DNA of 64,000 nucleotides from Patescibacteria group bacterium (GCA_041649715.1 JBAZMP010000001.1:309287-373286), one strand, 5' to 3'; shown: positions 6,599 through 63,990, counted from the first letter of the stretch. A program made the numbers and translations. Notes: generated by a model from the letters alone, not told the origin.

Positions 6599-6652
6599 AG
6601 TAATTCAAACATAAGCTCATTTTTCCCTCCCCACTGGCGGTTTTTGCCTAAC

Positions 6653-6687: not shown

Positions 6688-6691
6688 ACTA

Positions 6692-7405: not shown

Positions 7406-7409
7406 AAAT

Positions 7410-7525: not shown

Positions 7526-7695
7526 TGATTCTTTTTCACCAAAAAAACAAACAATCAACCAAGACATTTTTTATCCGCCCGCTAGCCTTAGCGTGTTTTT
7601 TGTATGAAGAAGTTTATCCACCTTGACTTAGAAAGGTATATATATTAGTGTTAAGTTAGTACTAATTCAGTAAATTAGCACAATCTACTAATTTT

Positions 7696-9023: not shown

Positions 9024-9036
9024 CCTTAACATATTT

Positions 9037-10830: not shown

Positions 10831-10879
10831 TTTGTTCAAGCAGTGGGTCTTTAGGCATCTGCTAGCTTGCGGATGGGCG

Positions 10880-11188: not shown

Positions 11189-11375
11189 CCGGCACCTCCT
11201 GGGAAAAGAGCGGATTTCCTTGGGCTAGGCGGAAATCACCGGCCTACTTATTCCCGTTTTTGCCCGCGGGAACGACCTGCTCATCCGAGACAGGAATTAC
11301 GGATATTACAAATTAGCATAGAGACAAAACTTAGTCAAGAGTTTTTATTTTTTTCAATTAGAGTATAATAAACTT

Positions 11376-11627
11376 ATGGAAACCTCTAAAATCGAATCTT
11401 TTGCGCAAGCCATGGCCAGAGCGGAAACACTGGAAAGGGAAGGCGGTTTAACTGACGAAGTGATGGCTATAAGGATGTGGGTCAAAGAAAAATATCCAAC
11501 GGAGTTTGCCGGATATCTTAAGAATAAAACCGATAAAGCCGGCAGCGCCGGCGAAACCATCCATTCCAATGTCTACGGGAAAAAAAGAATGGATGACCTG
11601 AAAAATAAAAGAGAAATTAAATTCTAA
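11376..11627 (+). CDS. Hypothetical small protein
   Basis: 83-aa ORF with a TATAAT box about 10 nt upstream. The protein is charged and helical. No motif recognised. Confidence 0.4.
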   Translation: METSKIESFAQAMARAETLEREGGLTDEVMAIRMWVKEKYPTEFAGYLKNKTDKAGSAGETIHSNVYGKKRMDDLKNKREIKF

Positions 11628-11637
11628 AAATATCCAT

Positions 11638-30527: not shown

Positions 30528-30531
30528 AATT

Positions 30532-32424
30532 ATGGAGGAAGGGGTAAAAAATATAAAGAGAGCAAAAGGGGCTTTTCGTTTTTTTATCTTGGCCGGCCTA
30601 GTGATTGTTTTGCCGCTTTTTGTTTTTATTTTTATCAATCAGCCGCTAAAACCCACCCTGGTCGTGATCAAGGAGGAAAGCAGGTTGAAAGTTGATTCAC
30701 CGCTGGAGATCCAGTTTGACTGGCCGGTCGCCCGCCAAGTAAATATCACCATTGAACCGGCGGTAACGGGCGAGGTGGCTTATAAGAATATGATCATCGG
30801 CCAGCATTTTTCGCGGACCGTGGTTTTTACCCCGGAGCTTAACTTTTGGCCGGACACCACCTACCAAGTGAGGGTTTCAAATGTGAAATCCGTTTTGCCG
30901 AGCTTGTTGCCGGCCCGGGAATATGTCTATACTTTTACCACGGAAAGTGTGCCGAAAATCAAATCCCTGACCCCGGAAGTTGTTGGGGAAATAAGGGCAG
31001 ACCAAGAATTCAAAATAACCCTGGATAAAAAACCGGCCAACCTGGCAGAATACGAATATCGTTTTTTGCCGGCTGTTGATTATGACACTCTGTTAAGCGA
31101 AGAGGGAAAAACCGTCACTTTAAAGCCTAAAAGCTTGCTTTCCCAGGGCCAGACTTATCAGTTATCTGTTTGGCAGAAAAAAATCCGGAATTTTTATCAG
31201 AAAAATGAGGCGGGTTTCCGGGCCGAGCCGGAAAGTATTTGGACCGGCAATTTTGCCGTCCGGGAGGCTCCCTTTCTTTCGGGCTTTTCCCCGAAAGGAG
31301 AAAATGTCGGCTTAAACGCCGAGATCACCGCGGTTTTTAACGAGCCGGTGGAAACTGCTTCTTTCAAAGAGAGCCTTTCCATCACGCCGGCTTTATCAGG
31401 CGATTGGCGGACCGAAGATCAAAAAACCTTTGTTTTGAAAGAAGCGACACTCGCCAAAGACACCGACTATAAAGTTTTGATCCGCCGGGGCTTAAAGACT
31501 CTCAAGGGCGGATATTTCACCGAAGACGCCACGCATACTTTTAAAACGATCGGCCCGGTGGAAATCGCTCGTTTTTCTCCGGCTGATGGCGCCGCCGGCG
31601 TTTCCGTCAGTCATTCTTTTTCCGTCACTTTTAACCAGGCAGTGGATAAAACATCGGCCCAAAGTCATTTTTCCCTTGAGCCGGCGGCTGCCGGAGATTT
31701 TTTGTGGTCAGGGGAGACATTGACTTTTAAGCCAAAGGCTTCCTTAGCTTTTAATACGACCTATCATCTCACGATATCCAAGGGAGTGAAAAGCTTGTCG
31801 GGTTTTGATTCGGAAGAAGACTATAAAACAAACTTTACCACCGAGCTTTCCCTGACGAAATTGGCCGTTCCCTTCCACCGGCAGGAGCATAATTTAAGCT
31901 GCGAGACCGCCACCCTGGTCATGGCCTTGGCCTACCGAGGGGTGAGCGTTTCGGAGGCCGCGATTATAGATTATATCGGCTTTGACCCCACGCCGAAATC
32001 AGGGGGCGTCTGGGGTAATCCTAACGTCGCTTTTGTCGGCGACATTGACGGCCACCAGCCTTCGACCGGCTACGGAGTCTATTGGGATCCGATCACCAGA
32101 GCCGCCGATCAATACCGGAGCGCTTATGATTTTACCGGCTGGAATATCTCCGATTTGACCGCGGAGATCAAGAAAGGCAATCCGGTGATCGTCTGGGGCA
32201 CGGCCGGTTCCGGAGCCAGGATTGACTGGAAGACGCCCGCCGGCGGCAACGTGGTGGCCGTCAGCGGCGAGCACACCCGGGTGGTTGTCGGTTTTATCGG
32301 TTCGGCCGAAAATCCGAGCAAAATCATTACTTTAGACCCGCTTTCCGGGGAAAAGTATTTTACCTTGAGCAGTTTTCTTTGGAACTGGGGGCTTTTGGGC
32401 CGAAGCGGCGTGGTGGTCGAATAG
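30532..32424 (+). CDS. Membrane-anchored multidomain protein with a C-terminal YvpB/C39-like cysteine peptidase domain
   Basis: 630 aa. An N-terminal TM helix is followed by repeated beta-sandwich-like segments. The C-terminal domain LAVPFHRQEHNLSCETATLVMALAYRGVSVSE ... GEHTRVVVGF matches the Peptidase_C39_2 (YvpB) pattern VP...Q....CE..S..M. Confidence 0.6.
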   Translation: MEEGVKNIKRAKGAFRFFILAGLVIVLPLFVFIFINQPLKPTLVVIKEESRLKVDSPLEIQFDWPVARQVNITIEPAVTGEVAYKNMIIGQHFSRTVVFTPELNFWPDTTYQVRVSNVKSVLPSLLPAREYVYTFTTESVPKIKSLTPEVVGEIRADQEFKITLDKKPANLAEYEYRFLPAVDYDTLLSEEGKTVTLKPKSLLSQGQTYQLSVWQKKIRNFYQKNEAGFRAEPESIWTGNFAVREAPFLSGFSPKGENVGLNAEITAVFNEPVETASFKESLSITPALSGDWRTEDQKTFVLKEATLAKDTDYKVLIRRGLKTLKGGYFTEDATHTFKTIGPVEIARFSPADGAAGVSVSHSFSVTFNQAVDKTSAQSHFSLEPAAAGDFLWSGETLTFKPKASLAFNTTYHLTISKGVKSLSGFDSEEDYKTNFTTELSLTKLAVPFHRQEHNLSCETATLVMALAYRGVSVSEAAIIDYIGFDPTPKSGGVWGNPNVAFVGDIDGHQPSTGYGVYWDPITRAADQYRSAYDFTGWNISDLTAEIKKGNPVIVWGTAGSGARIDWKTPAGGNVVAVSGEHTRVVVGFIGSAENPSKIITLDPLSGEKYFTLSSFLWNWGLLGRSGVVVE

Positions 32425-32446
32425 GAGATTTTGTTCTATAATAAGA

Positions 32447-33421
32447 GTGATTAAATATAAACTGATGTCCCATTGTGTTCTCATTTTCGAAAAAGAAACC
32501 ATCCGGGAAGCAGGCTTGGAGGATATCCACAAGGATGATCTGATCTGGGCGGATTTTCAAGATCCGACGGAAAAGGATTTAAAATTTGTTGCCGAACTGA
32601 TCGGGACCGGCATCCCGGAGATAAAAGAATGGTTTAAGCCCTCGCAAAGGCCGACTCTGTTCCAGCAGGATGATTACTCGGCCATTTTTTTAGGTTTCCC
32701 CGTGGCTAGCAATAAATCTATCCACGCTCATCCTTTGTTAATATTTGTTTCTAAAGACCGGAACGATATCATAACCCTGCATCGCGGCCCGTGCCTGGCT
32801 CTTGAAAAAGTCCATTCCTACAATGAATTGCGTAATTTGCGGGTTTTTAAGGGCGGTATTACTAACGTGCTTTTAGCCATCCTGGAAGAAGTGGTGGACA
32901 GTTTTTTTGATAACGTGGAAAAGATCAGCGACGATTTGGAAAATATTGAAGGCCATATGTTTGACTATAAAAACAGCCGGAACGTGATGAACCTAACTTT
33001 TACAGTAAAAAAAAGCCTGATCTATCTGAACCGGGCCCTGATCGCTGACCGCGAGGTCGTCATGGGGATAGAAAGGCAGTATGTAAAATTTTTCGACGAG
33101 GAACGACTAGGGGATTTCCGCGATCTATCCCTGAAGATCGTCCAGCTGATCGAAATGATGACCACCTACCGGGATATCATCACTTCGACCATTGAGATTC
33201 ATCTCTCGGCCATTTCCAATAACCTGAACGTGACCATGAAGAAAGTCACCTCCTGGGGCGCTCTAATCTTGGTGCCCAGTCTGATCGCCGGTATTTTTGG
33301 CATGAATTTCGAATACATCCCCATTTTGCATGAAAGAACTGGTTTCTATATATCCATAATATTAATGGTGTCATCGGTATATGTTCTGGCGCGGTATTTT
33401 CAAAAGAAAGACTGGCTGTAA
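32447..33421 (+). CDS. corA: Magnesium/cobalt transporter CorA
   Basis: 324 aa. The C-terminus has two TM helices with the GMN signature (IFGMNFEYIP) and the typical cytoplasmic domain. Confidence 0.8.
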   Translation: MIKYKLMSHCVLIFEKETIREAGLEDIHKDDLIWADFQDPTEKDLKFVAELIGTGIPEIKEWFKPSQRPTLFQQDDYSAIFLGFPVASNKSIHAHPLLIFVSKDRNDIITLHRGPCLALEKVHSYNELRNLRVFKGGITNVLLAILEEVVDSFFDNVEKISDDLENIEGHMFDYKNSRNVMNLTFTVKKSLIYLNRALIADREVVMGIERQYVKFFDEERLGDFRDLSLKIVQLIEMMTTYRDIITSTIEIHLSAISNNLNVTMKKVTSWGALILVPSLIAGIFGMNFEYIPILHERTGFYISIILMVSSVYVLARYFQKKDWL

Positions 33422-33426
33422 AAAAA

Positions 33427-34230
33427 ATGAAGAAGAAAATAATAATATTGTTATTAATCCTAACACTCGCCTGTCTTTTTTATTTCGGCCGGCACCAGAT
33501 CGCGGAATTATGGGAGAATTTCGTGGCCGAACCCCTGCCAGAACCGACTCCTCTGGAAAATATCAATACAAGGATAAATCAAAATACTAACGCAGCGGTC
33601 AATCAGAATCAAAATATTAACTTGTCGGTGAATAATAACCTTAACGCCGCGCCGCCCGTTTTACCGTCTGAATTCAATCTAGTCGTGCCTTTTACCACTC
33701 AGTCGCCGTTTGCGGAATGGACCGAGCAGGATAACGAATCCTGCGAAGAAGCGGCGATTTTGACCGTCCATTATTACTGGCAAAAAAAGACTTTTACCAA
33801 ACAAATTGCCAAAGAGGAGCTGCAAAAGATTGTGGATTATGAAATGGCGCATCTGGGTTTTTACAAAGATACGGATGCGGAAGAAACGGCCCAGTTGGCC
33901 AAGGATATGTGGGGCTACAAGCGCGTGGACGTGGTTTGGGATCCGACGCTTGAGGATATAAAACAGCAGGTCTATGCCGGCCGACCGGTGATCTTGCCGA
34001 CCGCGGGAAGAGAGTTAAAAAACCCGAATTTCAAAACGCCGGGGCCCATATACCACATGGTGGTGGTGCGCGGCTGGACCAAGGGTATGATCATTACCAA
34101 TGATCCGGGCACGCGCAAAGGTGAAAATTACCAATATTCCCCTGATATTTTAATGAATGCGGTGCATGACTGGAACGACGGGGATATAATGAATGGAAAA
34201 AAGGCGATGATTGTGATTTATCCGAATTAA
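33427..34230 (+). CDS. Signal-anchored YvpB/C39-like peptidase-domain protein
   Basis: 267 aa. A TM anchor and Asn-rich linker are followed by LVVPFTTQSPFAEWTEQDNESCEEAAILTVHYYWQ ... YHMVVVRGW, which matches the Cys and His regions. Confidence 0.55.
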   Translation: MKKKIIILLLILTLACLFYFGRHQIAELWENFVAEPLPEPTPLENINTRINQNTNAAVNQNQNINLSVNNNLNAAPPVLPSEFNLVVPFTTQSPFAEWTEQDNESCEEAAILTVHYYWQKKTFTKQIAKEELQKIVDYEMAHLGFYKDTDAEETAQLAKDMWGYKRVDVVWDPTLEDIKQQVYAGRPVILPTAGRELKNPNFKTPGPIYHMVVVRGWTKGMIITNDPGTRKGENYQYSPDILMNAVHDWNDGDIMNGKKAMIVIYPN

Positions 34231-35002: not shown

Positions 35003-35356
35003 ATGAAAAAAATCGCTTTAATCGCCACAATGGCTATCGCTTGCGTCTTGCCTCTTGCCGTTTTGGCCCAAACGCCGCTTTCTATTGAGAATGTCGGCAG
35101 TACCCTGGGTCTTGGCACGGCTGATCTCAAGGCCAGCGTTTTAAACATCCTCCAGTGGGTCCTGGGTCTGCTTGGCTTAATCGCGGTGATTATGATCATT
35201 ATCGGCGGCATAACACTGCTGGTGCCGACGAGCGCCGAAGCGGGAGAGAAAGCGAAAAAGATAATTACGGGGGCGGTCATCGGTTTGGTCGTTATCTTGC
35301 TCGCCTGGGCCATTATTATCTTTGTCATCAACACGACCACTAACGTGACGGTTTAA
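35003..35356 (+). CDS. Small secreted 2-TM protein: a candidate TrbC/VirB2-like pilin, or a hydrophobic bacteriocin-like peptide
   Basis: 117 aa. Signal peptide MKKIALIATMAIACVLPLAVLAQT, then two long hydrophobic helices separated by the basic loop PTSAEAGEKAKKIITG. The overlapping minus-strand ORF was rejected. Confidence 0.45.
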   Translation: MKKIALIATMAIACVLPLAVLAQTPLSIENVGSTLGLGTADLKASVLNILQWVLGLLGLIAVIMIIIGGITLLVPTSAEAGEKAKKIITGAVIGLVVILLAWAIIIFVINTTTNVTV

Positions 35357-35630: not shown

Positions 35631-36440
35631 ATGGAAAATATCATCGAAGTCAAGAATCTAACCAAAAAATTCAAGGATCTGACCGCCGTGGATAGCATCT
35701 CTTTTAACGTCAAAAAGGGGGAGGTCTTCGGTTTTTTAGGGCCGAATGGGGCCGGTAAATCCACGACCATCCGGATGCTGACCACCTTGATGCGGCCGAC
35801 TTCCGGCCAGGCGACCGTGGCCGGACACGACGTTTCCAGCCAGCCGGATCTGGTGCGCGAGCACATCGGTTTAGTGGCGGAAAAAATCATCCTCTATGAT
35901 CGGCTGACGGCAATGGAAAATCTGATGTTTTTCGGTAACCTTTATCATTTACCAAAAAATGTCATTAAAGAAAGAGCGGCTAAGTGGCTGAAAGCCCTGG
36001 ATATGGATAAATGGGAAAAAAAGCAGACCGGTACTTTTTCCACGGGCATGAAGCAAAGAGTGAATATCGTCCGGGCCCTTTTGACCGAGCCGGAAGTGAT
36101 GTTTCTGGATGAGCCGACTTTGGGCCTGGATCCGCAGACGTCCCGCTCCATCCGGGATTTTATTAAAGATTTGCATGCCCACGGGGTGACGGTTATTTTG
36201 ACCACCCATATTATGCCCGAAGCGGACGAACTTTCCGATACCATTGCGATTATTGACCGCGGCCGGATTATCGCCTTAGACACTCCTTCTGACCTAAAAG
36301 CTCGCTGTAATAAGCCGAATGCTACCCTGGAAGACGTTTTTCTTTCTTTGACCGGCCGGGTCATGCGCGAGGAAACCCATAATAATATACCTTCGGCCCG
36401 AGGCCGCCATTTCATGGGTGGCCGGTCCCGGATCAGATAA
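35631..36440 (+). CDS. ABC transporter ATP-binding protein
   Basis: 269 aa. Walker A GPNGAGKST, signature FSTGMKQR, Walker B VMFLDEPTLGLD and a His-loop TTH. Confidence 0.85.
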   Translation: MENIIEVKNLTKKFKDLTAVDSISFNVKKGEVFGFLGPNGAGKSTTIRMLTTLMRPTSGQATVAGHDVSSQPDLVREHIGLVAEKIILYDRLTAMENLMFFGNLYHLPKNVIKERAAKWLKALDMDKWEKKQTGTFSTGMKQRVNIVRALLTEPEVMFLDEPTLGLDPQTSRSIRDFIKDLHAHGVTVILTTHIMPEADELSDTIAIIDRGRIIALDTPSDLKARCNKPNATLEDVFLSLTGRVMREETHNNIPSARGRHFMGGRSRIR

Positions 36441-36458
36441 TTAACTCCTTATATTAAT

Positions 36459-37670
36459 ATGAAAAAGTTCGGACAAATTTTCATTGACAGCTTCCGGATG
36501 GCCCGCAAAGACCTGCTGGATTTTTCCCGCGACCGGATGCAGCTGGTTTTTTTCATGATCATGCCCGTTTTTATGATGATCATGACGGGTTTTATTTTTC
36601 CCTCGCAAAGCTCTTTGAAGGATATCTCTCTGGGCCTGGCCAATCAGGACAAGGGACAGATGGGGGTAATCCTGACCAAAGTGCTGACCGAGATGAAGAC
36701 TTCAAGCGGCGCCGCGATCTTTAAGATTAAGACATATGCCGATGTGGACGGCCTGAAGCAGGGGATCCGGGCCCAAGCCATAAATGGCGGCGTCTTTATC
36801 GGTTCTGATTTTTCAAGTCTCGTCCAGAACAATCAGCAAGCCACGGTTTCCCTCGTTCCGGATCAATCAAATCCACAAATTTCCCAGATTCTCACCCAGA
36901 TCTTGGAGCGGGTTATTGCCGGTACGGGGAATAGCGTCGCCCAGGCCAAGGTGGGCGAAATGTTAAAACTGACCGCCACCGCCAATCCGAGCCTGTCGCA
37001 GGTTGACCCGGAAGCCATCATTAGTCCGATCCAAACCACTTTGGATAATTTGATTCCCGGCGAGACGAATTATTTTCAGTTTATCGCCCCGGGGATAATG
37101 GCCTTGATCGTGATGATGTCGGTGATGGCGGGCTTAGCCGCTTCCGTGTCCCGGGAACGGGAATCTGGCACTCTGGACGGTTTGCTCATCGCGCCGGTTT
37201 CGCGGCTTTCCATAATCTTGGGCAAATCACTTTCTCAAACCGTCCGCGGCATGGTCCAGGGTCTGGTGGTTCTGTTTTTGGCCATTCTTATCTTTGGCGT
37301 GCACGTCTACGGCAACTGGCTGATCATGATTTTACTGATGTTCCTTGGGGTGTTTGCTTTCATGGGTGTTGGCATCCTTGTTTCCGCGATGGCCACCGCC
37401 CAGGAAACGGCCATGACCATCATGATGACCCTGCAGTTTCCCATGATGTTCTTATCCGGCACTTTTTTCCCGATTCAGCAGATGCCTCACTTCATGCAAT
37501 ATATTTCGAAAGTGATACCGCTAACTTATGAATCTACGGCCCTGCGCAAGGTCATTGTCCTAAGCGCGGGATTTAGCGCCGTCTGGACCGAGATAGTAAT
37601 ACTTTTTGTTTTCGGGGCGGTGATGCTGGCGATTGCCGTGCCGATGTTTCGGAGGATGGTGACAAGGTAA
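36459..37670 (+). CDS. ABC-2 type transporter permease
   Basis: 403 aa. An N-terminal TM helix and large extracytoplasmic loop are followed by 5 C-terminal TM helices, the typical ABC-2 architecture. It lies downstream of the ATPase. Confidence 0.75.
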   Translation: MKKFGQIFIDSFRMARKDLLDFSRDRMQLVFFMIMPVFMMIMTGFIFPSQSSLKDISLGLANQDKGQMGVILTKVLTEMKTSSGAAIFKIKTYADVDGLKQGIRAQAINGGVFIGSDFSSLVQNNQQATVSLVPDQSNPQISQILTQILERVIAGTGNSVAQAKVGEMLKLTATANPSLSQVDPEAIISPIQTTLDNLIPGETNYFQFIAPGIMALIVMMSVMAGLAASVSRERESGTLDGLLIAPVSRLSIILGKSLSQTVRGMVQGLVVLFLAILIFGVHVYGNWLIMILLMFLGVFAFMGVGILVSAMATAQETAMTIMMTLQFPMMFLSGTFFPIQQMPHFMQYISKVIPLTYESTALRKVIVLSAGFSAVWTEIVILFVFGAVMLAIAVPMFRRMVTR

Positions 37671-37928: not shown

Positions 37929-40199
37929 ATGGATAATGAATCAATTAAGCCCAAGCCTCCGGTTAAAAAGGCCAATTTTACCATTTGGATCGTTTTGGGA
38001 GCGATCATAGTCATTGTTTTAGCTTTTGGCGGTTATTATCTGTACAGCCAAAGAGCCGGCAACAAAAATACCAATACAGTCAGCCAAACGAATATCAATG
38101 CCAATATCAACGAGAGCGAGAATCTGAATAATAATCTGAACTTGAATGTCAATCAGGCGGTTAACGGCAATACCAATACCTCGGTGGCCAAAACCGGCTG
38201 GCAGCTTATTACCTATCAGCGGGCGGACCACGGTTTCACTTTCCAGCTACCGGAAAATTGGACGACCTGGGGCGGCTGGAACGGCTTTCGCGAAACAGAC
38301 CCTTTGGCTGGCGCTCATTTGGCGGATAATGACAAATATCTGGACTTGACTCTCAATTATTTTGTAAATACCGAGCCGTCTTTTGAAACCTGGCTGGCGA
38401 AACGCAAAGAAGCCATAAGCAAGGACGAAACGATTATCAATGAACAGATAAAAACGATTAACGGCTCTGAGGCGGCCGTAATAGACACCCAATACGATTA
38501 TGTCATTAGCGGAGGCGGAATATATTTAAAAGTCTACGCTTTCGTACCGCGCGGCGATAAGATTTATAAACTTGAAGCAAGTGGGAAAAAGGATTTTTTT
38601 GAAAGCCAAAGCCAAGGTGTTGACGGAATAATTGAGTCTTTTAAATTTATCGACGTAAAACCAATCGCAGAGATCAATACAATTTCTTACGGGCAGAAGA
38701 TATCCTCAAACCTTGCCTATAACCTTGAAGTTGATTGGCTGGCCGAACCCTTGAGTATCAATATGAAAGAACCTTCCCTGTTAAAATCCGATAGCGGCGT
38801 TATGAACCGGGATTACTATCAAGTCGGAACGATCACTAACGGCCGCTATAAAGACAAGAAGCTGCTCGATATTTTTGAAACACCGGATGGGCCGGCTTTT
38901 TATCCTGACTTGTATCGGGTGGTATACGACGAGGAGAGTCGGACATTCACGTATCTGGAAAAACTTTCGGCCACCCTTTCCGATTACGTCAAGGAGAATT
39001 TTGCTTACGACACGGGTTCCACAATCAGCTCTTTGTCTGGAATGCCCGCCGAAATTTCCATTCCTGATTCACAGATAAAACTGGCGGCCGAAGCTTATTC
39101 TTTAAACGGACGCTTTTCCTCCTATGAAAATTTAGAGCTATTATTTACGGATACGACAGCGGGAAAAGTATATTTTGACTCGGTGAAAAAATGTTTTCTG
39201 ATCGAGACACCAGACAGTTTGGTCAAGCTCTATTATCTTAAACTGGACTTTGTCAGCAATTTCACGCCGCCGGAATATTCTTCATCCACGATTTCTCTCA
39301 TCCCAGCGGTTACTTGGACGGATGGCAGCAAAGTGACGAAAGAATACACGTACAGTGAGCCCACCGGCTGTGGGTCAAGCTATTGTCAGTCATTGTTTAC
39401 CGCCGAAGAACTCGGCGGGGCTGACGTGCTCCAAGTCGCCGGCAAGACATCGGCCGGAGATAACGTCTATGAATATAAGGATAAAAACGCCCAATTGCTG
39501 CAGGATACCTACAAAGAATACGGAGTGCCATATCAGGGCGAAAAGGTCGGTTACGAGCAATTTATAAGCGGTCACCCGGTTTTTTACTGGCCGGACCCGT
39601 TTGGCCGATATTTGCGGTTTAAGAAGTCTGAATTTTTGCCCATGGTTGAGTGTGCAAAACCCGTGATCTATCTTTATCCGGAAAAAACGGAAAAAATAAG
39701 GGTGGAAGTGGCGCCGAACGGCGGTTTCTCTGAAACGATCCCGACCTATCCAGATGACGGTTGGCTGGTAACGGCTTCTCCGGCCGGCGAGCTATTAGCC
39801 GAAGATGGCGGAATATACCCATATCTTTTCTGGGAAGGTTTTGGCTTCAACTACAAAATTCCGGACAGAGGTTTTATCGTGGCTAAAAAAGATGTCGGTG
39901 TTTTCCTCTCGGAAAAATTAATAGCCTTGGGCTTGAATGAAAAAGAGGTCGGCGAGTTCAAGGATTTCTGGCTGCCCAAGATGTCAGAAAAACCCTATTA
40001 TTTTATCACTTTCGTCGATCAGAATGTCTTTAACGAACTTGCGCCCTTGAAAGTGACGCCGCAACCCGACCGGATCATCCGGGTTTTTATGGATTATAAA
40101 CCATTGGACGCCCCGATAAGCGTGGAGCCTCTGGAGATTTCGACGCCGGAAAGATCCGGTTTCACCGTGGTGGAGTGGGGCGGTGCCCTGCACCGATAA
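37929..40199 (+). CDS. Large membrane-anchored extracytoplasmic protein of unknown function
   Basis: 756 aa. A TM anchor ending in GGYYLY is followed by an NTNTVSQTNINANINESENLNNNLNLNVN linker and no recognisable catalytic motif. Confidence 0.6.
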   Translation: MDNESIKPKPPVKKANFTIWIVLGAIIVIVLAFGGYYLYSQRAGNKNTNTVSQTNINANINESENLNNNLNLNVNQAVNGNTNTSVAKTGWQLITYQRADHGFTFQLPENWTTWGGWNGFRETDPLAGAHLADNDKYLDLTLNYFVNTEPSFETWLAKRKEAISKDETIINEQIKTINGSEAAVIDTQYDYVISGGGIYLKVYAFVPRGDKIYKLEASGKKDFFESQSQGVDGIIESFKFIDVKPIAEINTISYGQKISSNLAYNLEVDWLAEPLSINMKEPSLLKSDSGVMNRDYYQVGTITNGRYKDKKLLDIFETPDGPAFYPDLYRVVYDEESRTFTYLEKLSATLSDYVKENFAYDTGSTISSLSGMPAEISIPDSQIKLAAEAYSLNGRFSSYENLELLFTDTTAGKVYFDSVKKCFLIETPDSLVKLYYLKLDFVSNFTPPEYSSSTISLIPAVTWTDGSKVTKEYTYSEPTGCGSSYCQSLFTAEELGGADVLQVAGKTSAGDNVYEYKDKNAQLLQDTYKEYGVPYQGEKVGYEQFISGHPVFYWPDPFGRYLRFKKSEFLPMVECAKPVIYLYPEKTEKIRVEVAPNGGFSETIPTYPDDGWLVTASPAGELLAEDGGIYPYLFWEGFGFNYKIPDRGFIVAKKDVGVFLSEKLIALGLNEKEVGEFKDFWLPKMSEKPYYFITFVDQNVFNELAPLKVTPQPDRIIRVFMDYKPLDAPISVEPLEISTPERSGFTVVEWGGALHR

Positions 40200-50564: not shown

Positions 50565-51749
50565 ATGCAACAAAATAAAATAGCCGAAAGTAAAAATGAG
50601 GGTAAAAAAGAAATAAAGTTGACCCGAGGCCAGACGATCAAGTCGATGGTGCTGGGCGTTCTGACCTTGGGGGCAGGATTTTTGGCGTGGTTCGCCATTG
50701 CCCGCATCTTAAATAACGGTTTGCGGTTTGACAGCGCGAATATCTGGTTATTTATTTTTGATGTTATTTTTCCGGTTTTAGCTTTTTGCCTCTGGGTGGC
50801 TTTTATCGGAATAGACGCCATTTTTATTCGGAAAAAAATCTGGGTTTATCCCCTTGCCTTGCTGTCAATTATACCCTTGTTTATGTTTTTTCCTCTTAAT
50901 ATTTATGCCCTTATCGCTTTTACCATCATTGTTTTAGCCTATTTGTATTTTATACGTGGTGCCAGGCGGGAGCGCAGGGATCGGATAAAATTTCATTTAA
51001 TCAATTGCCTAAAAGTTCATTTAGGCTTGACCCTTATTTTTTGTATCGCCGCCATCTCTCTGCTTTTTTACAGTCACATGGCCGAAAAGCAGAAAAACGG
51101 CCAAACAAACACCAATGATGTGGTGGCTTCAAGCACGGCTGATTTGGTCAATCTATTTTTGGAAAGTCAATTCAGCAACTATAATCCGGACCAGACTTTA
51201 GATGAATTCATTTTACAGTCCGGCCAGCAGTTCATCGAACAACTCGGACCCCAGCTGGGCGAGGGAGTAAAAGTCGAATCGAGCTTCCAAACCGAGAATT
51301 TAATCAACAAGATTGAAGAAGCGATAAACAGGGGTGAAATTAAAAGAGATGATCTGCCGGCGGAATTATTACAAAAATTGGATGAGGGCCGGTTAACCGC
51401 CAGTGACGTGGTGGATGCCCAATTGACTTCGCTCTTTACGGACCAGCTGGCGGCTGGCCGGGATGATTTTTTAAAACAGCTTGGCGTCGAGGCGAAAGGT
51501 ACGGATAAGATATCCGAGGTGGTGAAAAAGATCGTCAGTCATTTGCTGAGCGAGGGTTTACTGCCGTTTGTGACCTGGTTGCCGCCTTTTTTGGCGATTT
51601 CCTTGTTTTTTACCCTGGCGATTTTTGATTTTCTCTACGTCATTTTCGTCAAGATCATCGCTCTTCTAATATATCTCGTTTTGTTAATTTCTAAGTTTAT
51701 TATTGTAAAGAAGGAGACTAAAGAAGTGGAAGTGGCGGAGCTTTCTTAA
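50565..51749 (+). CDS. Hypothetical polytopic membrane protein
   Basis: 394 aa. About 5 TM helices in the N-terminal half and 2 at the C-terminus, with an acidic helical middle region. Confidence 0.55.
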   Translation: MQQNKIAESKNEGKKEIKLTRGQTIKSMVLGVLTLGAGFLAWFAIARILNNGLRFDSANIWLFIFDVIFPVLAFCLWVAFIGIDAIFIRKKIWVYPLALLSIIPLFMFFPLNIYALIAFTIIVLAYLYFIRGARRERRDRIKFHLINCLKVHLGLTLIFCIAAISLLFYSHMAEKQKNGQTNTNDVVASSTADLVNLFLESQFSNYNPDQTLDEFILQSGQQFIEQLGPQLGEGVKVESSFQTENLINKIEEAINRGEIKRDDLPAELLQKLDEGRLTASDVVDAQLTSLFTDQLAAGRDDFLKQLGVEAKGTDKISEVVKKIVSHLLSEGLLPFVTWLPPFLAISLFFTLAIFDFLYVIFVKIIALLIYLVLLISKFIIVKKETKEVEVAELS

Positions 51750-56260: not shown

Positions 56261-57208
56261 TTATTTTTTTGTTTGAGGGAGTCGGAAACTGTCGTGCGCC
56301 CAGTCGTCAGTTACCGATTGAACGTCTTGTTCCGTAACTATCGCTTTTTGTTTTTCGTATTTTTGGGGATTCGTGATGCTATCCAGCCTTACCTTAGCGG
56401 CGGTTTCGTCCATCAGGTCAATCGCTTTATCCGGAAAAGTGCGACCGGAGAAGACGGAGGCGGAAAGATTGACGCAGGCGGCCAGCGCTTGATCAGAGAT
56501 TTTAACGGAATGATGGCGTTGGTAGCGGTGCCTTAATCCTTTCAATATTTCCAAAGTTTGCTGGGGGGATGGTTCATCGACAAACACCGGCTGAAATCTT
56601 CTTTCTAGTGTTCTGTCCTTAGCGATGGATTTTTCATAATCTTGCAGGGTAGTGGCCCCGATGGCCTGCAGCTCTCCGCGCGCCAAAGCCGGTTTTAAGA
56701 TATCAGCCGCGTCAATGGCTCCGGTGGCTTCGCCCGCTTCGGCTAATGAATGGAGTTCGTCAATAAAAATAATAATATTTCTTTTGGAAGCGATTATTTC
56801 GTCCACCACCATTTTTAATCTTTTTTCAAATTCGCCGCGGTACTTTGTGCCGGCGACCAGACCGGAAAGGTCAAGGGCGAGAAGCCTTTTATCTTTTAAG
56901 GGTTCGGGTACCTCGCCCCTTACGATCTCGTTAGCCAGTTCTTCAACAATCGCGGTTTTGCCCACGCCCGACTTGCCGATTAACACAGGATTATTTTTCG
57001 TCCGTCGGGTCAAAATCTGGATGACTCTTTGGATTTCGTGGCTGCGGCCGACCACTGGGTCAAGTTTACAGGCCCTGGCCAGGTCAGTTAAATCCTTGGA
57101 GTATAGGGCCAAAGTGTTGGTACGCGCCGTTACTTTTTGGCTGCGCTGGTAAAGGAATATGACAACCACGAGGCCGAGTAAACCGATGATATATATGTAG
57201 ATATTCAT
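56261..57208 (-). CDS. Membrane-anchored ClpB/ClpC-like AAA+ ATPase consisting of the D1 domain only
   Basis: 315 aa. An N-terminal TM helix ([18 protein letters not shown]) runs directly into [53 protein letters not shown] (Clp D1 Walker A), then FIDELH (Walker B) and a sensor region. There is no N-domain, M-domain or D2. Confidence 0.6.
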
Positions 57209-57507: not shown

Positions 57508-58434
57508 TTATAAAAACTTTTTTTTCTTGAAAAATTGCCAGCTGACCAAGGTGGCGAACAAGAGAACAACGAGAATAATCCAAAAGCCCCAGCGGAAATG
57601 GAGGAAGGGGGTGTCTTTAGCGTTAATGGCAAAAATGGAGGCGATCAAGGTGAGAATGAAAATAATCACCGAGATGCTGGTAAAGGTTTTCATGATGTCG
57701 TTCAAACGGTTTGAGATCAATGATTCATTCGTTTCGTGCAGCGCCTCGATTGATTCCTTGAAGCTTTCCAGATGATCCCAGATTTCCTTACTTAGTTCAA
57801 TCAGATCGTTATAATAAATCGACATTTTTTGGTTTCTGGAGAAGCCCGTGTCTTTTATGATTATACTGAGCTTTTTCAGGGTATTTTTATGAGCCTGCAT
57901 AATTTGACGGAAATCGGTGATATTGCGCCGAATGATTAGAATTTCAGAGACCATCTTTTTTTCCGAGCCGCTGAAAATCTCCCTTTCGATGCTCCTGATG
58001 TCGAGACTGACATGATCGAGCATCGGATAGCAGTAACAGAGGAGTTTGTCCAGGATCTGGTAAAGCAGGAAGACGGAGCCTTCGGACAATATTTCGTATT
58101 TGACTTTTTCCTCGGTCTGGCAGGATTGAAAAAGCCCTCTTAGGGGCGCTAAATTATTATTGTGGACAGTGACAAAATAATCTTCTCCGATAAAGAAATC
58201 TATTTCCGAGGGCTCGATTTCGCGCGTTTTTCGGTTATAAACCGGGAATAAGAGAACCAGAAAAATATATTTTGGATACTTTTCGATTTTTGGCCTTTGG
58301 CCGTAAATCAAACAATCCTCTAGATCAAGAGGATGGAAAGGGAAGTTATTCCTTAGGAAATCAATCTCGCCTTTTTCCGGATTGACAATATTAATCCAGC
58401 GTAAATTTTTCGTCCTAATTTCCGCTAAACTCAT
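57508..58434 (-). CDS. CorA-family divalent cation transporter-like protein with a non-canonical AIN in place of GMN
   Basis: 308 aa. The N-terminus is CorA-like (FPFHPLDLEDCLIYGQRPKIEKYPKYIFLVL). Two C-terminal TM helices carry FAINAKDTPF where YGMNF is expected. Confidence 0.55.
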   Translation of the reverse strand: MSLAEIRTKNLRWINIVNPEKGEIDFLRNNFPFHPLDLEDCLIYGQRPKIEKYPKYIFLVLLFPVYNRKTREIEPSEIDFFIGEDYFVTVHNNNLAPLRGLFQSCQTEEKVKYEILSEGSVFLLYQILDKLLCYCYPMLDHVSLDIRSIEREIFSGSEKKMVSEILIIRRNITDFRQIMQAHKNTLKKLSIIIKDTGFSRNQKMSIYYNDLIELSKEIWDHLESFKESIEALHETNESLISNRLNDIMKTFTSISVIIFILTLIASIFAINAKDTPFLHFRWGFWIILVVLLFATLVSWQFFKKKKFL

Positions 58435-59445: not shown

Positions 59446-59572
59446 GACCAGACCTCCTGTGTTTTCGCCTTTTTTCGTATTCTATTTCCGCAACTCGTTA
59501 TGCTAGCATATTTTTACTCTCTTGTCAAGAGGCGAAATTTATGGTATACTATAAACATAATCAAGCGATTTT

Positions 59573-60115
59573 ATGGTCAATCTTTCGGTCGGACAAATTG
59601 AACAAGAAAAAAAAGAGCCTGTTTTGAAAGAACCGGCGAAAGATTTTGAAGTCAAAAAAGAGACGGAGGTTTTTCCGGAAAAATCGGTCGAAAGGGCCGT
59701 GGAAGTCCGAACTGAGAAGGAAGCCGCTAAAAAAGAAGAACAGCCGCCGGCGATAATAGAGAAAGAAGCGGCCGGCCAACCCTCATCATCCGTGGGGGTG
59801 ACGGCGCCTAAGGTCGCAAAGACCCCGGTCATAAGGGAAATTGAAGGGATTATGGAAGAAGATCTGGCTGAGATTTATAACCGCCTGGACGAAAAGCAAA
59901 AGATAGTTTTTAAGGTGGAGGGGGAGAAAACGGCGACGAAAATAGGGGAGCTGCTTCAATCGGTTAAGACAAAGGCCAGGCAGATTTTAGAGCTGATAAA
60001 GCGCTGGCTGAAGGTTATTCCTGGCTATAACAGGTTTTTTTTGGAGCAGGAAGCAAAAATAAAGACAGACAAAATTTTGCGCCTAAAAGACAAAGAACAA
60101 AAAGGGGGAGATTAA
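59573..60115 (+). CDS. Hypothetical Lys/Glu-rich protein
   Basis: 180 aa. Its stop lies 2 nt before the TTG start of the downstream ATPase, so the two genes are probably an operon. Confidence 0.45.
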   Translation: MVNLSVGQIEQEKKEPVLKEPAKDFEVKKETEVFPEKSVERAVEVRTEKEAAKKEEQPPAIIEKEAAGQPSSSVGVTAPKVAKTPVIREIEGIMEEDLAEIYNRLDEKQKIVFKVEGEKTATKIGELLQSVKTKARQILELIKRWLKVIPGYNRFFLEQEAKIKTDKILRLKDKEQKGGD

Positions 60116-60117
60116 GC

Positions 60118-62697
60118 TTGTTTCATCTTCTACAAACATTATTGATTTCGAACCAAACAGCTCTGCCGGCCTTGACTAATTTAGGGGGCAAGCAGGCCGG
60201 TTTTTGGCAAAATCCCATACTGGTGGCCGTTTTATATTTTATCGCGGTATTGTTATTTTTGGCGGCGCTCATGTTTTTGGTTCGATATCTTCTGACGCGG
60301 CGCCAGGCCAGACCGGCCTCTTTAAGAAAAATCATCCTTTTAGTGACGCTGCCCAAGGAAGTCGGGAGTAAAGAAAAGCAGCCGGAAAAACCACTCAGGG
60401 AACTTATTGATGAAGCGGAAGCGATGTTTTCTTCTTTGGGCGGTATGCGGGCGCAGCGAGGCTTGGAAGTTTTTTTTACCGGGCGCACTGATCATTTTTC
60501 TCTGGAGATCGCCGCCTATGACGGTTTGATCTCATTTTACGTGGTTGTCCCGGCTTTTTTGCGGACTTACACCGAAGAGCAGATTCATTCCCAGTATCCG
60601 AAAGCGAACATCGAAGAAGTTGAGGATTATAATATTTTTACACCGGAAAGCCAGATCGTGGCCACTTCCCTCCGATTCAAAAAATCCTATATTTTTCCCA
60701 TCAAGACCTACCGTTTGATGGATGTCGATCCCTTAAGCTCGTTGACTAACGTTTTGTCAAAGATCCCGAAAGGAGAAGGGGCGGTTATCCAGTATATTGT
60801 TCGTTCGGCTAAAGCCCAATGGCACGGCCGCGGGGCCGGCGTGGCAAAAAAAATGCACGAAGGCAAAAATTTGAAGGAGGCGCAGGGCGTTCACGGCGTA
60901 AACGCGATCTTTTCGAATTTCGCCAGCATTTTTTTTCCCAAGAAGAAAAAAGAAGAAATGGATTTGCGGCCTAATTTTCGGGTATCCCCGCGCGATGAGG
61001 AAATCGCCAAAAGTTTGGAAGAGAAGACTTCCCGGGCGGGCATGGATGTAAATATACGCCTTATCGTCTCGGCTAAAACGAAAGAACGGGCCCTCGCGCT
61101 GAACCGGGAGATTGTTAATGCTTTTAGCCAGTATAACCTATACGAATACGGTAACGGTTTAGTCAAACGAAACCTCTGGACGCCCTGGAGCCAAAATAAG
61201 TTAGTGATGAGTTATATCTACCGGATGTATAACGAGCGTCATAAATTAATACTTAATTCCGAAGAAATGGCCAGCTTATTTCATTTTCCTCTGGAAAGCA
61301 CCGAAACCCCGAACATCCGCTGGCTGCTCGCCCGCAAGGCGCCCGCGCCGGTTAATCTTCCGTCAGAAGGCATAATCCTGGGGCAAAATATTTTCCGCGG
61401 AGAAAAGAAGCTTGTCCGCCTTAAGCGGGATGACCGTCGCCGGCACGTCTACATGATCGGGATGACCGGCTCGGGTAAATCAGTTCTCATGCAGGAAATG
61501 GTCAAGCAGGATATTCGGAATGGGGACGGTGTCTGCGTGATCGATCCGCATGGCGGACTAGTCGAGGACATTCTGGCCTGTATTCCTAAAGAAAGGGCGG
61601 AAGATGTCGTGCTGTTTGAACCATCTGACGTGGAAAGACCGGTGGGTTTGAATATGCTGGAAGCGACCAGCCCGGAAGAAGCGGATTTTGCCGTTCAGGA
61701 AATGATCGCCATTTTTTACAAGCTTTTTCCGCCGGAGATGATCGGTCCTATGTTTGAGCATAATATGCGCAATGTGATGCTGACCCTAATGGCCGATAAA
61801 GAATATCCCGGCACGATCGCCGATATTCCCCGTATGTTCACCGACAAGGCCTACCAGGAGTACAAATTGAAAAAGGTCACGGATCCGGTCGTGCGGTCAT
61901 TCTGGGAAAAAGAGATGGCGAAAACGACGGATTTCCACAAATCAGAAATGCTGGGCTACTTAATTTCTAAAGTCGGCCGTTTTGTGGAGAACCAGATGAT
62001 GCGCAATATAATCGGTCAGCCGCACTCGGGTTTTAATTTTCGGGAGGTGATGGATAAGCAGAAGGTTTTACTCGTAAATCTCTCCAAAGGAAAAACGGGC
62101 GAAGTTAACAGCAATTTGCTCGGCTTAATCCTTGTTTCCAAACTGCAGATGGCCGCTTTAGCCCGGGCGGATATGCCCGAGAGCGAAAGAAAGGACTTTT
62201 ATCTTTATATCGACGAATTCCAGAATTTCATCACTCCATCCATCGCGACCATTCTGTCTGAGGCAAGGAAATACAAATTGAATTTGATCATGGCTCATCA
62301 ATATCTGGGTCAATTGACGCAGGGGCAAAATAATAATATTCGCGACGCGGTTTTGGGGAACGTCGGCACGCTTATCGCTTTCCGTATCGGCGTTGAAGAC
62401 GCAGAAATTATCGCCCGTCAGCTGGATCCCGTTTTTTCCGAATACGACGTGGTGAATATCGCTCGTTTTAACGCGTATATAAAACTTTTAATTGATAATG
62501 CCACGGCTAAGGCTTTTAATATTGCTACTTTTCCTCCCACTATCGGCAATCCTTTAATTAGCAAAAAAATCAGGGAACTTTCTCGTTTGAAATATGGACG
62601 ATCAAGAATACAGGTTGAGGCAGAATTGATGGAGCGGACAAAATTGGGCGAAGTGATAAAAACACCGTTCCCGAGTTCAGGCGAGAAGAATATTTAG
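60118..62697 (+). CDS. VirB4/TrbE-like (AAA_10/DUF87 superfamily) P-loop ATPase, membrane-anchored
   Basis: 859 aa. A TTG start sits after AAAGGGGGAG. The N-terminus has a TM helix. Walker A is GMTGSGKS, Walker B is LYIDEFQNF, and the conserved EARKYKLNLIMAHQYLGQL motif is as in the VirB4/TraG families. Confidence 0.55.
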   Translation: MFHLLQTLLISNQTALPALTNLGGKQAGFWQNPILVAVLYFIAVLLFLAALMFLVRYLLTRRQARPASLRKIILLVTLPKEVGSKEKQPEKPLRELIDEAEAMFSSLGGMRAQRGLEVFFTGRTDHFSLEIAAYDGLISFYVVVPAFLRTYTEEQIHSQYPKANIEEVEDYNIFTPESQIVATSLRFKKSYIFPIKTYRLMDVDPLSSLTNVLSKIPKGEGAVIQYIVRSAKAQWHGRGAGVAKKMHEGKNLKEAQGVHGVNAIFSNFASIFFPKKKKEEMDLRPNFRVSPRDEEIAKSLEEKTSRAGMDVNIRLIVSAKTKERALALNREIVNAFSQYNLYEYGNGLVKRNLWTPWSQNKLVMSYIYRMYNERHKLILNSEEMASLFHFPLESTETPNIRWLLARKAPAPVNLPSEGIILGQNIFRGEKKLVRLKRDDRRRHVYMIGMTGSGKSVLMQEMVKQDIRNGDGVCVIDPHGGLVEDILACIPKERAEDVVLFEPSDVERPVGLNMLEATSPEEADFAVQEMIAIFYKLFPPEMIGPMFEHNMRNVMLTLMADKEYPGTIADIPRMFTDKAYQEYKLKKVTDPVVRSFWEKEMAKTTDFHKSEMLGYLISKVGRFVENQMMRNIIGQPHSGFNFREVMDKQKVLLVNLSKGKTGEVNSNLLGLILVSKLQMAALARADMPESERKDFYLYIDEFQNFITPSIATILSEARKYKLNLIMAHQYLGQLTQGQNNNIRDAVLGNVGTLIAFRIGVEDAEIIARQLDPVFSEYDVVNIARFNAYIKLLIDNATAKAFNIATFPPTIGNPLISKKIRELSRLKYGRSRIQVEAELMERTKLGEVIKTPFPSSGEKNI

Positions 62698-62733: not shown

Positions 62734-63264
62734 ATGGATAGTCTTTTTTTTATTCTATATTTTTGCCTTATTATCGTTATTGTTGGTACAGCTGCCTGGG
62801 CCGGAATAAAAGCCGCCCCCTGGGTGCCGACACGCCAAAAAGATATTAAACGGATGCTTGAGTTGGCCAGAATAAAACCGTCGGATTTAGTTTACGATCT
62901 GGGGGCGGGAGACGGTCGCTTAGTCGTCGCCGTGGCTAAAGAATATCCGTCTAAAGTGGTCGGCTTTGAATTATCCGTGCTTCCGTATTTGGTCGCTCGC
63001 CTAAGAGTGAGGCTGGCCGGTTTTGGTCCGCGTACAAAAATTTTGTTCAAAGATTTCTATCATTATGATGTTTCGGGAGCGGATGTCATCTTATGTTTCT
63101 TGACCCCTAAGGCGATGAGCCGTCTCAGCCCTAAATTCAGCCGTGAATTAAAAAGCGGGGCCAGGATAATAAGCTATGCCTTCAAAATTAAGGATTGGCC
63201 GATTGCTGAAATAAGCAAGCCTCAGGCGAAAGATACCCCCATATTCCTGCATGTTAAAAAGTAG
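62734..63264 (+). CDS. Small class I SAM-dependent methyltransferase with an N-terminal TM helix
   Basis: 176 aa. Motif I is VYDLGAGDGRLVVAVAKEY. Confidence 0.6.
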   Translation: MDSLFFILYFCLIIVIVGTAAWAGIKAAPWVPTRQKDIKRMLELARIKPSDLVYDLGAGDGRLVVAVAKEYPSKVVGFELSVLPYLVARLRVRLAGFGPRTKILFKDFYHYDVSGADVILCFLTPKAMSRLSPKFSRELKSGARIISYAFKIKDWPIAEISKPQAKDTPIFLHVKK

Positions 63265-63444: not shown

Positions 63445-63990
63445 ATGCCAAAACAAAATAAGCTCCAATTAATAAAAAAATTGATTGATTCGGCGGTAGA
63501 CAGCATTAATCAGGCCAAATCCCTTTTAGCCGAATTAACCGGACAGGCGGTATCTTCGGAAGCGGAAGAGAAAGCGCGGGAAGTGGGCAGCGTTGACCTC
63601 TCCACTGACAACACAAAAATAATTGAAGGGGTTTTTGACGGGCAGAATATGATCGGCCCGGACGGCAAGCAGTATTCCATCCCCGCCAATTATGCCTCAA
63701 AATCAAAACTCGTCGAAGGTGACATCTTAAAATTGACCATCATGCCCGATGGTTCTTTTGTTTACAAGCAGATCGGTCCGGTGGAAAGAAAAAGACTCGT
63801 CGGAACCCTCATCAAGGACGAAAGTACCGAGGATTTCAAGGTTTTGTCCGAAAACAAGACTTATGGGTTGCTTTTGGCGAGTGTTACCTATTTCAAGGGT
63901 GATGTCGGTGATGAAGTGGTGATTTTAGTGCCGGAGAAAGGGGAAAGCAGCTGGGCGGCGGTTGAAAATATCATAAAAAAGTCGTTATAA
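63445..63990 (+). CDS. Hypothetical protein
   Basis: 181-aa ORF preceded by an A-rich leader. No motif recognised. Confidence 0.45.
   Translation: MPKQNKLQLIKKLIDSAVDSINQAKSLLAELTGQAVSSEAEEKAREVGSVDLSTDNTKIIEGVFDGQNMIGPDGKQYSIPANYASKSKLVEGDILKLTIMPDGSFVYKQIGPVERKRLVGTLIKDESTEDFKVLSENKTYGLLLASVTYFKGDVGDEVVILVPEKGESSWAAVENIIKKSL

Follow-up and report, generated by a model that had tools for sequence, protein, structure and literature searches.

We analyzed a window of 64,000 nucleotides from a Patescibacteria group bacterium (GCA_041649715.1 JBAZMP010000001.1:309287-373286), in which two adjacent genes on the forward strand encode a putative membrane-anchored ATPase and the small protein that precedes it. 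The first gene, found by open reading frame (ORF) calling (59573-60115, +), starts with ATG and encodes a Lys/Glu-rich protein of 180 aa, NCBI locus tag WC528_01935, that we refer to as the partner; the second (60118-62697, +) starts with TTG and encodes an ATPase of 859 aa that carries a DUF8128 domain and resembles type IV coupling proteins (T4CPs). A sequence-only reading of this DNA had proposed the same pair of ORFs and had noted in the larger one an N-terminal transmembrane (TM) helix, Walker A and B motifs, and an ARKY motif, all of which are present in the translation; it had also assigned the ATPase to the VirB4/TrbE family, and on this point our analysis leads elsewhere. Both genes can be taken as real, given that full-length homologs of the ATPase number more than 1,886, the best 120 listed being 56-68% identical over their full length, and those of the partner at least 212.

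The arrangement of the two genes suggests an operon with translational coupling. The TAA stop codon of the partner (60113-60115) lies 2 nt ahead of the TTG start of the ATPase, as read directly from the sequence, and a Shine-Dalgarno-like GGGGGAG (60104-60110, +), 7 nt 5' of that start, falls within the last codons of the partner; it is this short gap and the position of the site that point to coupling. The partner stop and the ATPase start overlap by 4 nt in 13 orthologous loci, an approximate figure based on longest-ORF calls. The divergent intergenic region 5' of the partner contains a promoter-like site with an extended -10 (TTGTCA-17-TGgTATACT, 59522-59550, +). This is a consensus match only, with 10 of 12 hexamer positions matching and a TG preceding the -10, and such matches are no more numerous in the region than shuffling predicts.

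The annotation and structural model of the ATPase point to an architecture in which a TM anchor is followed by a domain like the N-terminal domain of VirB4 and then by a T4CP-like motor. The single N-terminal TM helix covers residues ~33-57 (nt 60214-60288, +; Kyte-Doolittle peak 3.0; helix 33-69 in the model). Because an Arg/Lys cluster follows it, the positive-inside rule predicts that the N-tail lies outside and the remainder of the protein in the cytoplasm. Residues 62-432 (nt 60301-61413, +) make up the N-terminal domain, which belongs to DUF8128 (PF26449) by Pfam annotation and has a VirB4-like fold in the AlphaFold2 model. The PF26449 assignment comes from the precomputed Pfam annotation of the identical protein, shared by all 120 homologs listed; a separate Pfam scan did not return the model. 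We found no paper mentioning DUF8128 in the literature searched. A search with this domain gave 2,103 representative clusters at E<=1e-3, and eight DUF8128 proteins (P0351, P0352, P0354, P0358, P0363, P0369, P0372, P0386) are unusually long at 1,267-2,006 aa; the long C-terminal extensions of five of these (P0351, P0352, P0358, P0363, P0386) match no Pfam family at E<=1e-4.

The motor follows as a RecA-like nucleotide-binding core in two halves. The first half (nt 61414-61671, +) includes the Walker A motif GMTGSGKS (residues 448-455, nt 61459-61482). An all-helical insert comes next (residues 519-646, nt 61672-62055, +), delineated by the secondary structure of the model; it sits where TrwB carries its all-alpha domain (AAD), to which its position suggests it is equivalent. 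The second half of the core, the TraG-D_C region (nt 62056-62547, +), contains the Walker B motif YLYIDEFQNF (residues 695-704; YLYIDE at nt 62200-62217) and the ARKY...AHQ motif, whose sequence is EARKYKLNLIMAHQYLGQL (residues 715-733). The catalytic residues K454, D699, E700, R717, and Q728 are invariant across the 45 homologs that we aligned.

Profile searches place this motor among the coupling proteins. Several Pfam models pass their cut-offs: TrwB_AAD_bind over residues 436-757 (E 5.5e-13, 49.0 bits against 20.5), T4SS-DNA_transf (E 1.3e-10, 41.2 bits against 20.1), TraG-D_C (E 1.6e-6, 28.5 bits against 22), and DUF87, which is confined to residues 441-529 (E 1.9e-6, 28.6 bits against 23.2). 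In contrast, the models expected of a VirB4 fail: AAA_10 reaches 11.7 bits against a cut-off of 27.5, TIGR00929 (VirB4) reaches 27.5 against 643.1, and CagE_TrbE_VirB (PF03135) gives no match at all. Thus, among the hidden Markov models that the sequence-only reading had proposed as a check, T4SS-DNA_transf and DUF87 recognize the protein and the two VirB4-type models do not. That reading had also named best homology to FtsK/HerA-type translocases or to DUF87 ATPases in non-secretion contexts as evidence that would speak against it, and this is not what we observe; FtsK_SpoIIIE scores 15.1 bits against 24, over the P-loop only, and the NCBIfam HerA model scores 13.6 against 970, with no NurA-like neighbour found. 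An FtsK or HerA identity was accordingly rejected, since the matches are at the level of the P-loop and both models stay below their thresholds.

Structural comparisons add a second layer to this picture. The AlphaFold2 model, built on the 45 homologs, has a mean predicted local distance difference test (pLDDT) score of 83, and that of the N-domain has 78. The closest sequence in the PDB is the R388 coupling protein TrwB, and in a Foldseek search against the PDB the motor superposes on TrwB with a template-modelling score of 0.62-0.64 (normalised to TrwB, ~415 columns) and also on Cagbeta; HerA structures are among the matches, scoring below TrwB. The best Foldseek E-values belong to full-length TrwK/VirB4 (E 1e-13, ~930 columns), and when the N-domain model is used as the query the top 13 matches are all TrwK chains. 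Because other ATPases are absent among these hits and the full-length alignment is collinear, the part of TrwK matched by DUF8128 would be its N-terminal domain. The ATPase therefore shares with VirB4 a two-domain architecture with the characteristic N-terminal domain, and what survives of the proposed VirB4-likeness is the fold of this domain, not membership in the family. The motor has the features of a T4CP, namely family models above their thresholds and an N-terminal anchor joined to a RecA-like nucleotide-binding domain with a helical insert. Taken together, these data make it very probable that the ATPase is a member of the T4CP (VirD4/TrwB-type) family, and the broader claim that it is a membrane-anchored ATPase of the type IV secretion superfamily is borne out by the TM helix and the T4CP models.

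The relatives of the ATPase outside Patescibacteria are consistent with this assignment. A tblastn search against plasmids returned 336 records, 32 of which cover at least 80% of the query, including the N-domain, at 23-29% identity; these come from Bacillus and related genera, Clostridium, and haloarchaea. Records from Sulfolobus, Moraxella, and most Streptomyces plasmids match the motor only. Where these motor-only relatives bear a type IV secretion system (T4SS) name, it is VirD4, TraM-recognition, or T4SS DNA-binding, several others being generic ATP-binding proteins; none of them is annotated as VirB4.

On the 24.7-kb B. subtilis plasmid NZ_CP032854, an 886-aa homolog (7830-10490) aligns with the profile of the candidate phyla radiation (CPR) family over 652 columns, including the N-domain (hhalign probability 99.9, E 7.5e-36). 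This gene is followed by Replic_Relax, TcpC, and TcpE-family genes and by an 848-aa AAA_10 VirB4 (E 3e-116), to which the same CPR profile has no similarity (hhalign probability 1.6%). The homolog is without an N-terminal TM helix and ends in a highly acidic tail of ~150 aa, and no partner-like ORF was found 5' of it, where 1.8 kb contain no convincing ORFs. MOB-suite types this plasmid as non-mobilizable despite its conjugation-type genes. On the Haladaptatus plasmid NZ_CP085339, a 355-aa ORF (7878-8945) matches the N-domain profile (E 7e-24); immediately 3' of it lies a 932-aa T4CP-like motor (9029-11827), beside a 1,072-aa AAA_10-like ATPase. As judged from these gene orders, the plasmid relatives occupy the coupling-protein slot beside a distinct VirB4, and the haloarchaeal plasmids carry as two natural pieces what is a single fused protein in CPR and Bacillus.

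Conservation within the ATPase is distributed unevenly. In the alignment of 45 homologs, which includes only close relatives (55-68% identical), conservation is highest in the helical insert, with 82% mean pairwise identity and 44% invariant columns. The two halves of the nucleotide-binding core follow with 69-73% identity and 31-34% invariant columns, then the DUF8128 domain with 50% and 8%, and finally the TM helix and N-tail with 22-26% and 0-3%. The all-alpha domain of classical coupling proteins is their variable, substrate-specific part. Such extreme constraint on the insert suggests that it may bind a single, universally conserved ligand.

Glu and Lys each account for 16% of the partner, which is free of hydrophobic or TM segments. 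Its N-terminal half is rich in Lys, Glu, and Pro and varies widely between homologs; the helical C-terminal ~90 aa show strong conservation, with the pattern IE.ILEE.L...F..KGEE.A.KI...WLK.IPGVN.FFLEQEAKIKTDKI. All of its homologs that bear an organism name are from Patescibacteria. Neither the partner nor its homologs belong to a Pfam family, nothing rises above threshold for it in Pfam, NCBIfam, or PADLOC, and no match to PDB profiles is significant, the best being a designed helical protein (E 0.74).

To compare gene order, we assembled 82 orthologous loci with flanks of ±6-10 kb, 75 of which have enough flank for the partner to be counted. In 58 of these 75, a co-directional homolog of the partner directly precedes the ATPase, with gaps mostly of -4 to +30 nt, so the upstream Lys/Glu-rich ORF of the sequence-only reading is a true conserved partner. 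In the other 17 loci the same slot holds a different small acidic ORF, and hhalign reveals no relationship between these ORFs and the partner. Three of the 17 (L053, L067, L074) share the motif NPYL.D.FHDTLV.ELY, which suggests that an accessory protein may be replaced in a lineage-specific manner where the partner is absent.

The same loci reveal a conserved order, cysS-(CorA)-partner-ATPase-orf181-dnaX, with dnaX 3' of the ATPase in 51 of 80 loci and cysS 5' in 43 of 80. At least 600 species-representative genomes carry the ATPase, the GC content at its locus equals that of its flanks, and the named homologs among the 120 listed are all from Patescibacteria (Kerfeld-, Uhr-, Falkow-, Magasanik-, Doudnabacteria, and others), in agreement with the earlier placement of the sequence in this group. 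The breadth of distribution, the conserved order, and the flank-like GC show that the ATPase is a vertically inherited core gene and not the cargo of a mobile element.

The conserved downstream neighbour, orf181 (63445-63990, +), encodes 181 aa, of which the C-terminal two-thirds are strongly conserved (EGVFDGQ.M.GPDGK.Y.VP.NYASKSKLVEGD.LKLTI..DGSF.YKQIGP). Of 72 loci, 55 have a co-directional homolog 3' of the ATPase, and in 35 the distance is no more than 400 nt. The protein has at least 8,000 matches; the 120 listed are nearly all from Patescibacteria/CPR, with a few metagenome-assembled genomes (MAGs) that bear other phylum labels. No Pfam family appears among these 120, and nothing exceeds threshold in Pfam, NCBIfam, or PADLOC. 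There is a weak MazE/AbrB-like signal, and the best match to PDB profiles, the Dot/Icm coupling-complex subunit DotY, is not significant (E 0.2) and is a lead, not a result. From its position, orf181 is possibly a third component of the ATPase system, a membership that is uncertain. Between the ATPase and orf181 lies a gene for a TM-anchored, S-adenosylmethionine (SAM)-methyltransferase-like protein (62734-63264, +; 176 aa with an N-terminal TM helix). A gene of this kind is found near the ATPase in only ~10 of the 82 loci, in the lineages closest to the source genome, so that it is a lineage-specific insertion and probably not part of the ATPase system.

The window also holds a gene for a type IV secretion pilin. 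The sequence-only reading had pointed to a pilin-like gene at 35003, and this gene (35003-35356, +) does encode a VirB2-type T4SS pilin of 117 aa with a signal peptide and two hydrophobic helices (PF18895, E 3.4e-11, 43.5 bits against a cut-off of 26.6). It is single copy in the window and lies 25 kb from the ATPase. It is flanked by Peptidase_C39_2 genes (30454-34230) on one side and an ABC-2 transporter (35631-37670) on the other, and adjoins no other T4SS gene; it is possible that the pilin is a distant component of the same secretion apparatus.

Published surveys give this observation its context. There are 5,713 VirD4-like T4CPs in 2,918 of 3,035 Patescibacteria genomes, nearly all far from virB4, and VirB4 itself occurs in 2,417 genomes, where it forms its own monophyletic clade and is usually encoded near dnaA with TrsD/VirB3/VirB6 (PMC12102498). 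T4CPs generally work with auxiliary proteins, and the N-terminal domains of VirB4 mediate self-association and docking into the inner-membrane complex of the T4SS (PMC12857230).

We consider it reasonably probable that the ATPase is a coupling-protein-type receptor and motor that works with auxiliary partners and probably serves a dispersed T4SS. By analogy with known coupling proteins, it would assemble as a membrane-associated ring, in which the VirB4-like N-domain, as in VirB4, would provide contacts for self-association and docking. The hyper-conserved helical insert would bind one universally conserved cargo or adaptor. The partner, and possibly orf181, may act as auxiliary subunits of a coupling complex, in the way that CagZ/CagF do for Cagbeta, TraM for TraD, and DotM/N/Y/Z for DotL. 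ATP hydrolysis would then pass a macromolecular substrate, either protein or nucleic acid, to the chromosomal relaxase-less T4SS of Patescibacteria, encoded elsewhere in the genome. The gene may descend from the coupling protein of a conjugation module of the monoderm/archaeal type that later became a vertically inherited core gene.

Several observations weigh against this proposal. Some concern the family assignment: the best NCBIfam matches are SXT TraD and the VirD4-like CD1115, but all NCBIfam equivalog and subfamily cut-offs, these two included, are missed by a wide margin, and the narrow CPR family profile does not detect F TraD/TraC, pCF10 PcfC/PrgJ, or pCW3 TcpA/TcpF (pCW3 TcpA scores 9.9 bits against the motor profile). 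The latter comparison does not discriminate between classic T4CPs and VirB4s, as the profile is too narrow and only the Bacillus and haloarchaeal relatives scored; that it misses TraD and PcfC suggests that the family is a deep, separate clade, for which the T4CPs are the sole broad affiliation above threshold.

Other points concern the link to secretion. Our search covered the 64-kb window of a 608-kb contig, with Pfam scans of ~35 larger ORFs, none of them at 14.5-29.4 kb, and phmmer searches that compared 12 reference T4SS proteins with all ORFs of at least 40 aa, and among the window ORFs examined we found no VirB4, VirB6, or other T4SS channel gene and no relaxase. Likewise, no T4SS channel gene or relaxase is found among the conserved gene families at the 82 loci, where rarer neighbours were left unprofiled, and VirB3/VirB6/VirB8-type genes are missing from both sets; the linkage to a relaxase or T4SS cluster used to recognize T4CPs is therefore not seen in the part of the window examined or in the conserved families. 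The link to secretion accordingly rests on homology and on the genome-wide co-occurrence reported by others. In Southlakia epibionticum, the one genetically tractable Patescibacterium, a distant t4cp homolog, which may or may not be of the DUF8128 type, was reported to be non-essential and the T4SS genes to be essential (PMC12102498, citing Wang 2023), and the essential T4SS cluster of this species contains no recognisable coupling protein or relaxase (PMC10633639). Finally, orf181 may belong with dnaX instead of the ATPase.

In a different explanation, an exapted ATPase that no longer works with a T4SS forms, with its two small partners, an independent membrane-associated pump for nucleic acids (or proteins), with a role in DNA or RNA import or export or in a chromosomal task, much as FtsK, TraB of Streptomyces, or the Ced ATPases of archaea do. 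The ATPase is always apart from virB4 (PMC12102498), its neighbourhood is strictly housekeeping (dnaX and cysS), and a hyper-conserved insert is what one would expect for a universal ligand such as nucleic acid. There are weak NCBIfam matches to the Ced DNA-import ATPases (CedD 1e-4, CedB 0.004), and the HerA structures returned by Foldseek point the same way. In S. epibionticum, the contrast between the non-essential t4cp and the essential T4SS suggests that the two can be uncoupled, and exaptation was considered by the authors of PMC12102498 themselves on account of the non-essential homolog. Against this stand the fold of the N-domain, which is that of VirB4 and whose known role there is docking at the T4SS inner membrane (PMC12857230), the embedding of the closest non-CPR relatives in conjugation modules with a VirB4, the near-universal presence of both T4CP and VirB4 in the phylum (PMC12102498), and the failure of the FtsK_SpoIIIE and HerA models. 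We regard such a pump as possible, though unlikely.

A bolder idea, which we put forward as speculative and rather doubtful, is that the ATPase is a surviving coupling protein of 'VirB4 architecture' from near the common ancestor of VirB4 and VirD4, and that in Patescibacteria, with the partner and orf181 as phylum-specific subunits, it forms a core machine, either independent of the T4SS or gating it, that moves one universal cargo such as host-derived nucleic acid or a key effector through the membrane. If true, this would help to explain how auxotrophic epibionts exchange macromolecules with their hosts.

That the ATPase is the VirB4/TrbE enzyme energising a type IV secretion or pilus system, as first proposed, now seems very unlikely. 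Its length of ~860 aa, its NTD+CTD (N-terminal and C-terminal domain) architecture, the full-length Foldseek alignment to TrwK/VirB4, and the VirB2-type pilin in the window would all fit a VirB4; the failure of AAA_10, PF03135, and TIGR00929, the lack of similarity to the Bacillus plasmid VirB4 in hhalign, and the coexistence of the plasmid relatives with a separate VirB4 argue otherwise, as does a genomic context that differs from that of Patescibacteria VirB4 near dnaA (PMC12102498).

A MADS-like anti-phage defence locus, made up of the ATPase and the adjacent methyltransferase, is highly improbable: PADLOC mad8 matches the ATPase (E 2.3e-19, 68 bits) and mad2 matches the 176-aa methyltransferase (E 7.5e-15), but no other mad component is found among nine neighbouring genes, as a multi-gene mad1-mad8 operon would require, the mad8 profile also weakly matches an unrelated AAA protein, the mad2 match is limited to the methyltransferase core (profile positions 265-396 of 492) and was judged a generic resemblance, the methyltransferase is rarely adjacent, and the ATPase is a core gene, not one of a variable island. 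Just as implausible is a remnant of an integrated conjugative or mobilisable element in which the T4CP was left after decay; the nearest non-CPR relatives are plasmid-borne and a foreign-looking low-GC stretch lies elsewhere in the window (1-7 kb), but the catalytic motifs are intact with 55-68% identity among aligned homologs, indicating purifying selection, the gene keeps the same chromosomal position in the 80 orthologous loci examined, its GC is that of its flanks, and no integrase, relaxase, or repeats were seen nearby.

Other features of the window are recorded here in their own right. Its first part (1-10100) looks like a foreign defence island of low GC (0.27-0.29 at 2-6 kb, compared with ~0.46 elsewhere), with a Bro-N protein (119-973), a 790-aa HSDR_N + N6_Mtase/Eco57I fusion (1214-3586) that resembles a type IIG/I restriction-modification enzyme, three ORFs without annotation (3577-6598), and, behind a 195-aa ORF (7696-8283), an AbiEii toxin (8280-9023). 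The neighbours of the ATPase in the window have chaperone and housekeeping functions; they include HrcA-GrpE-Hsp20-DnaK (41-45 kb) and DnaJ (51759), together with Dus, a pair of CorA genes, and an AAA gene resembling ClpB. The CorA genes are paralogous Mg2+ transporters (32447-33421 and 57508-58434), the second of which lies divergently beside the partner-ATPase operon in 20 of 82 loci. The ClpB-like gene (56261-57208, -) encodes 315 aa with an N-terminal hydrophobic helix and one ClpB-D1-like module (AAA + AAA_lid_9); this membrane-anchored 'half ClpB' is syntenic in two orthologous loci (L001 and L002). Two ORFs have no Pfam match at E<=1e-3, one of 756 aa (37929-40199) and one of 394 aa (50565-51749), and the latter precedes dnaJ and is syntenic in L001 and L002 as well. 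Many 'binchicken' MAGs that carry the gene cassette are titled 'uncultured Gammaproteobacteria' or 'Candidatus Saccharibacteria', labels that appear to be placeholders or wrong assignments.

Patescibacteria account for much of bacterial diversity and rely on host cells; the one species tested requires a T4SS that lacks a relaxase. A near-universal, conserved relative of coupling proteins with its own small partners is an obvious candidate for the missing substrate receptor of the T4SS and a handle for finding the cargo. Since its N-domain is VirB4-like and its motor VirD4-like, the family is also informative about the divergence of the two signature ATPases of the T4SS. Part of this is already known: the protein is annotated as 'type IV secretion system DNA-binding domain-containing protein', its N-domain is in Pfam as DUF8128, and orphan Patescibacteria T4CPs were published in 2025. 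As far as the literature searched shows, the VirB4-like fold of DUF8128, the partner, the cysS...dnaX synteny, the hyper-conserved insert, and the connection with relatives in conjugation modules, fused in Bacillus and split in haloarchaea, are new.

Compared with VirD4-type T4CPs (R388 TrwB, F TraD, H. pylori Cagbeta, and pCF10 PcfC), the CPR ATPase is likewise an anchored P-loop ATPase with Walker A and B motifs, a helical insert, and a TraG-D_C region. It differs in having one TM helix instead of two and in carrying a VirB4-like domain of ~370 aa between anchor and motor, whereas the soluble form of TrwB omits only 70 N-terminal residues. The helical insert is its most conserved part and not its most variable, and it is encoded by a chromosomal core gene with no relaxase or T4SS genes found nearby. 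It is set apart from VirB4 (R388 TrwK) by a lack of VirB4 membership at the sequence level, by a motor closer to the T4CPs, and by not being encoded with VirB3/VirB6/VirB8.

The type IV coupling complexes (DotL-DotM/N/Y/Z, Cagbeta-CagZ/CagF, and TraD-TraM) resemble the present locus in that a T4CP is encoded or works with small auxiliary proteins; the partner and orf181 have no detectable homology to the subunits of these complexes, the non-significant match of orf181 to DotY being the only hint. The orphan Patescibacteria T4CPs of Quinonero-Coronel et al. 2025 (PMC12102498) are, like our ATPase, VirD4-like and far from virB4, and the gene is almost certainly among those counted there; as far as the text could be read, neither the N-domain with its DUF8128 annotation and VirB4-like fold nor the upstream partner is described in that paper, and the same holds for the orf181/dnaX synteny and the hyper-conserved insert. 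The 'DUF87 domain-containing' and 'T4SS DNA-binding domain-containing' DUF8128 proteins of Bacillus, Clostridium, and haloarchaeal plasmids share with the CPR ATPase its two-domain architecture and homology that extends across both domains, at 24-29% identity; they differ in that they head conjugation modules, where a relaxase-family gene and a VirB4 of its own accompany them, and in having no homolog of the CPR partner.

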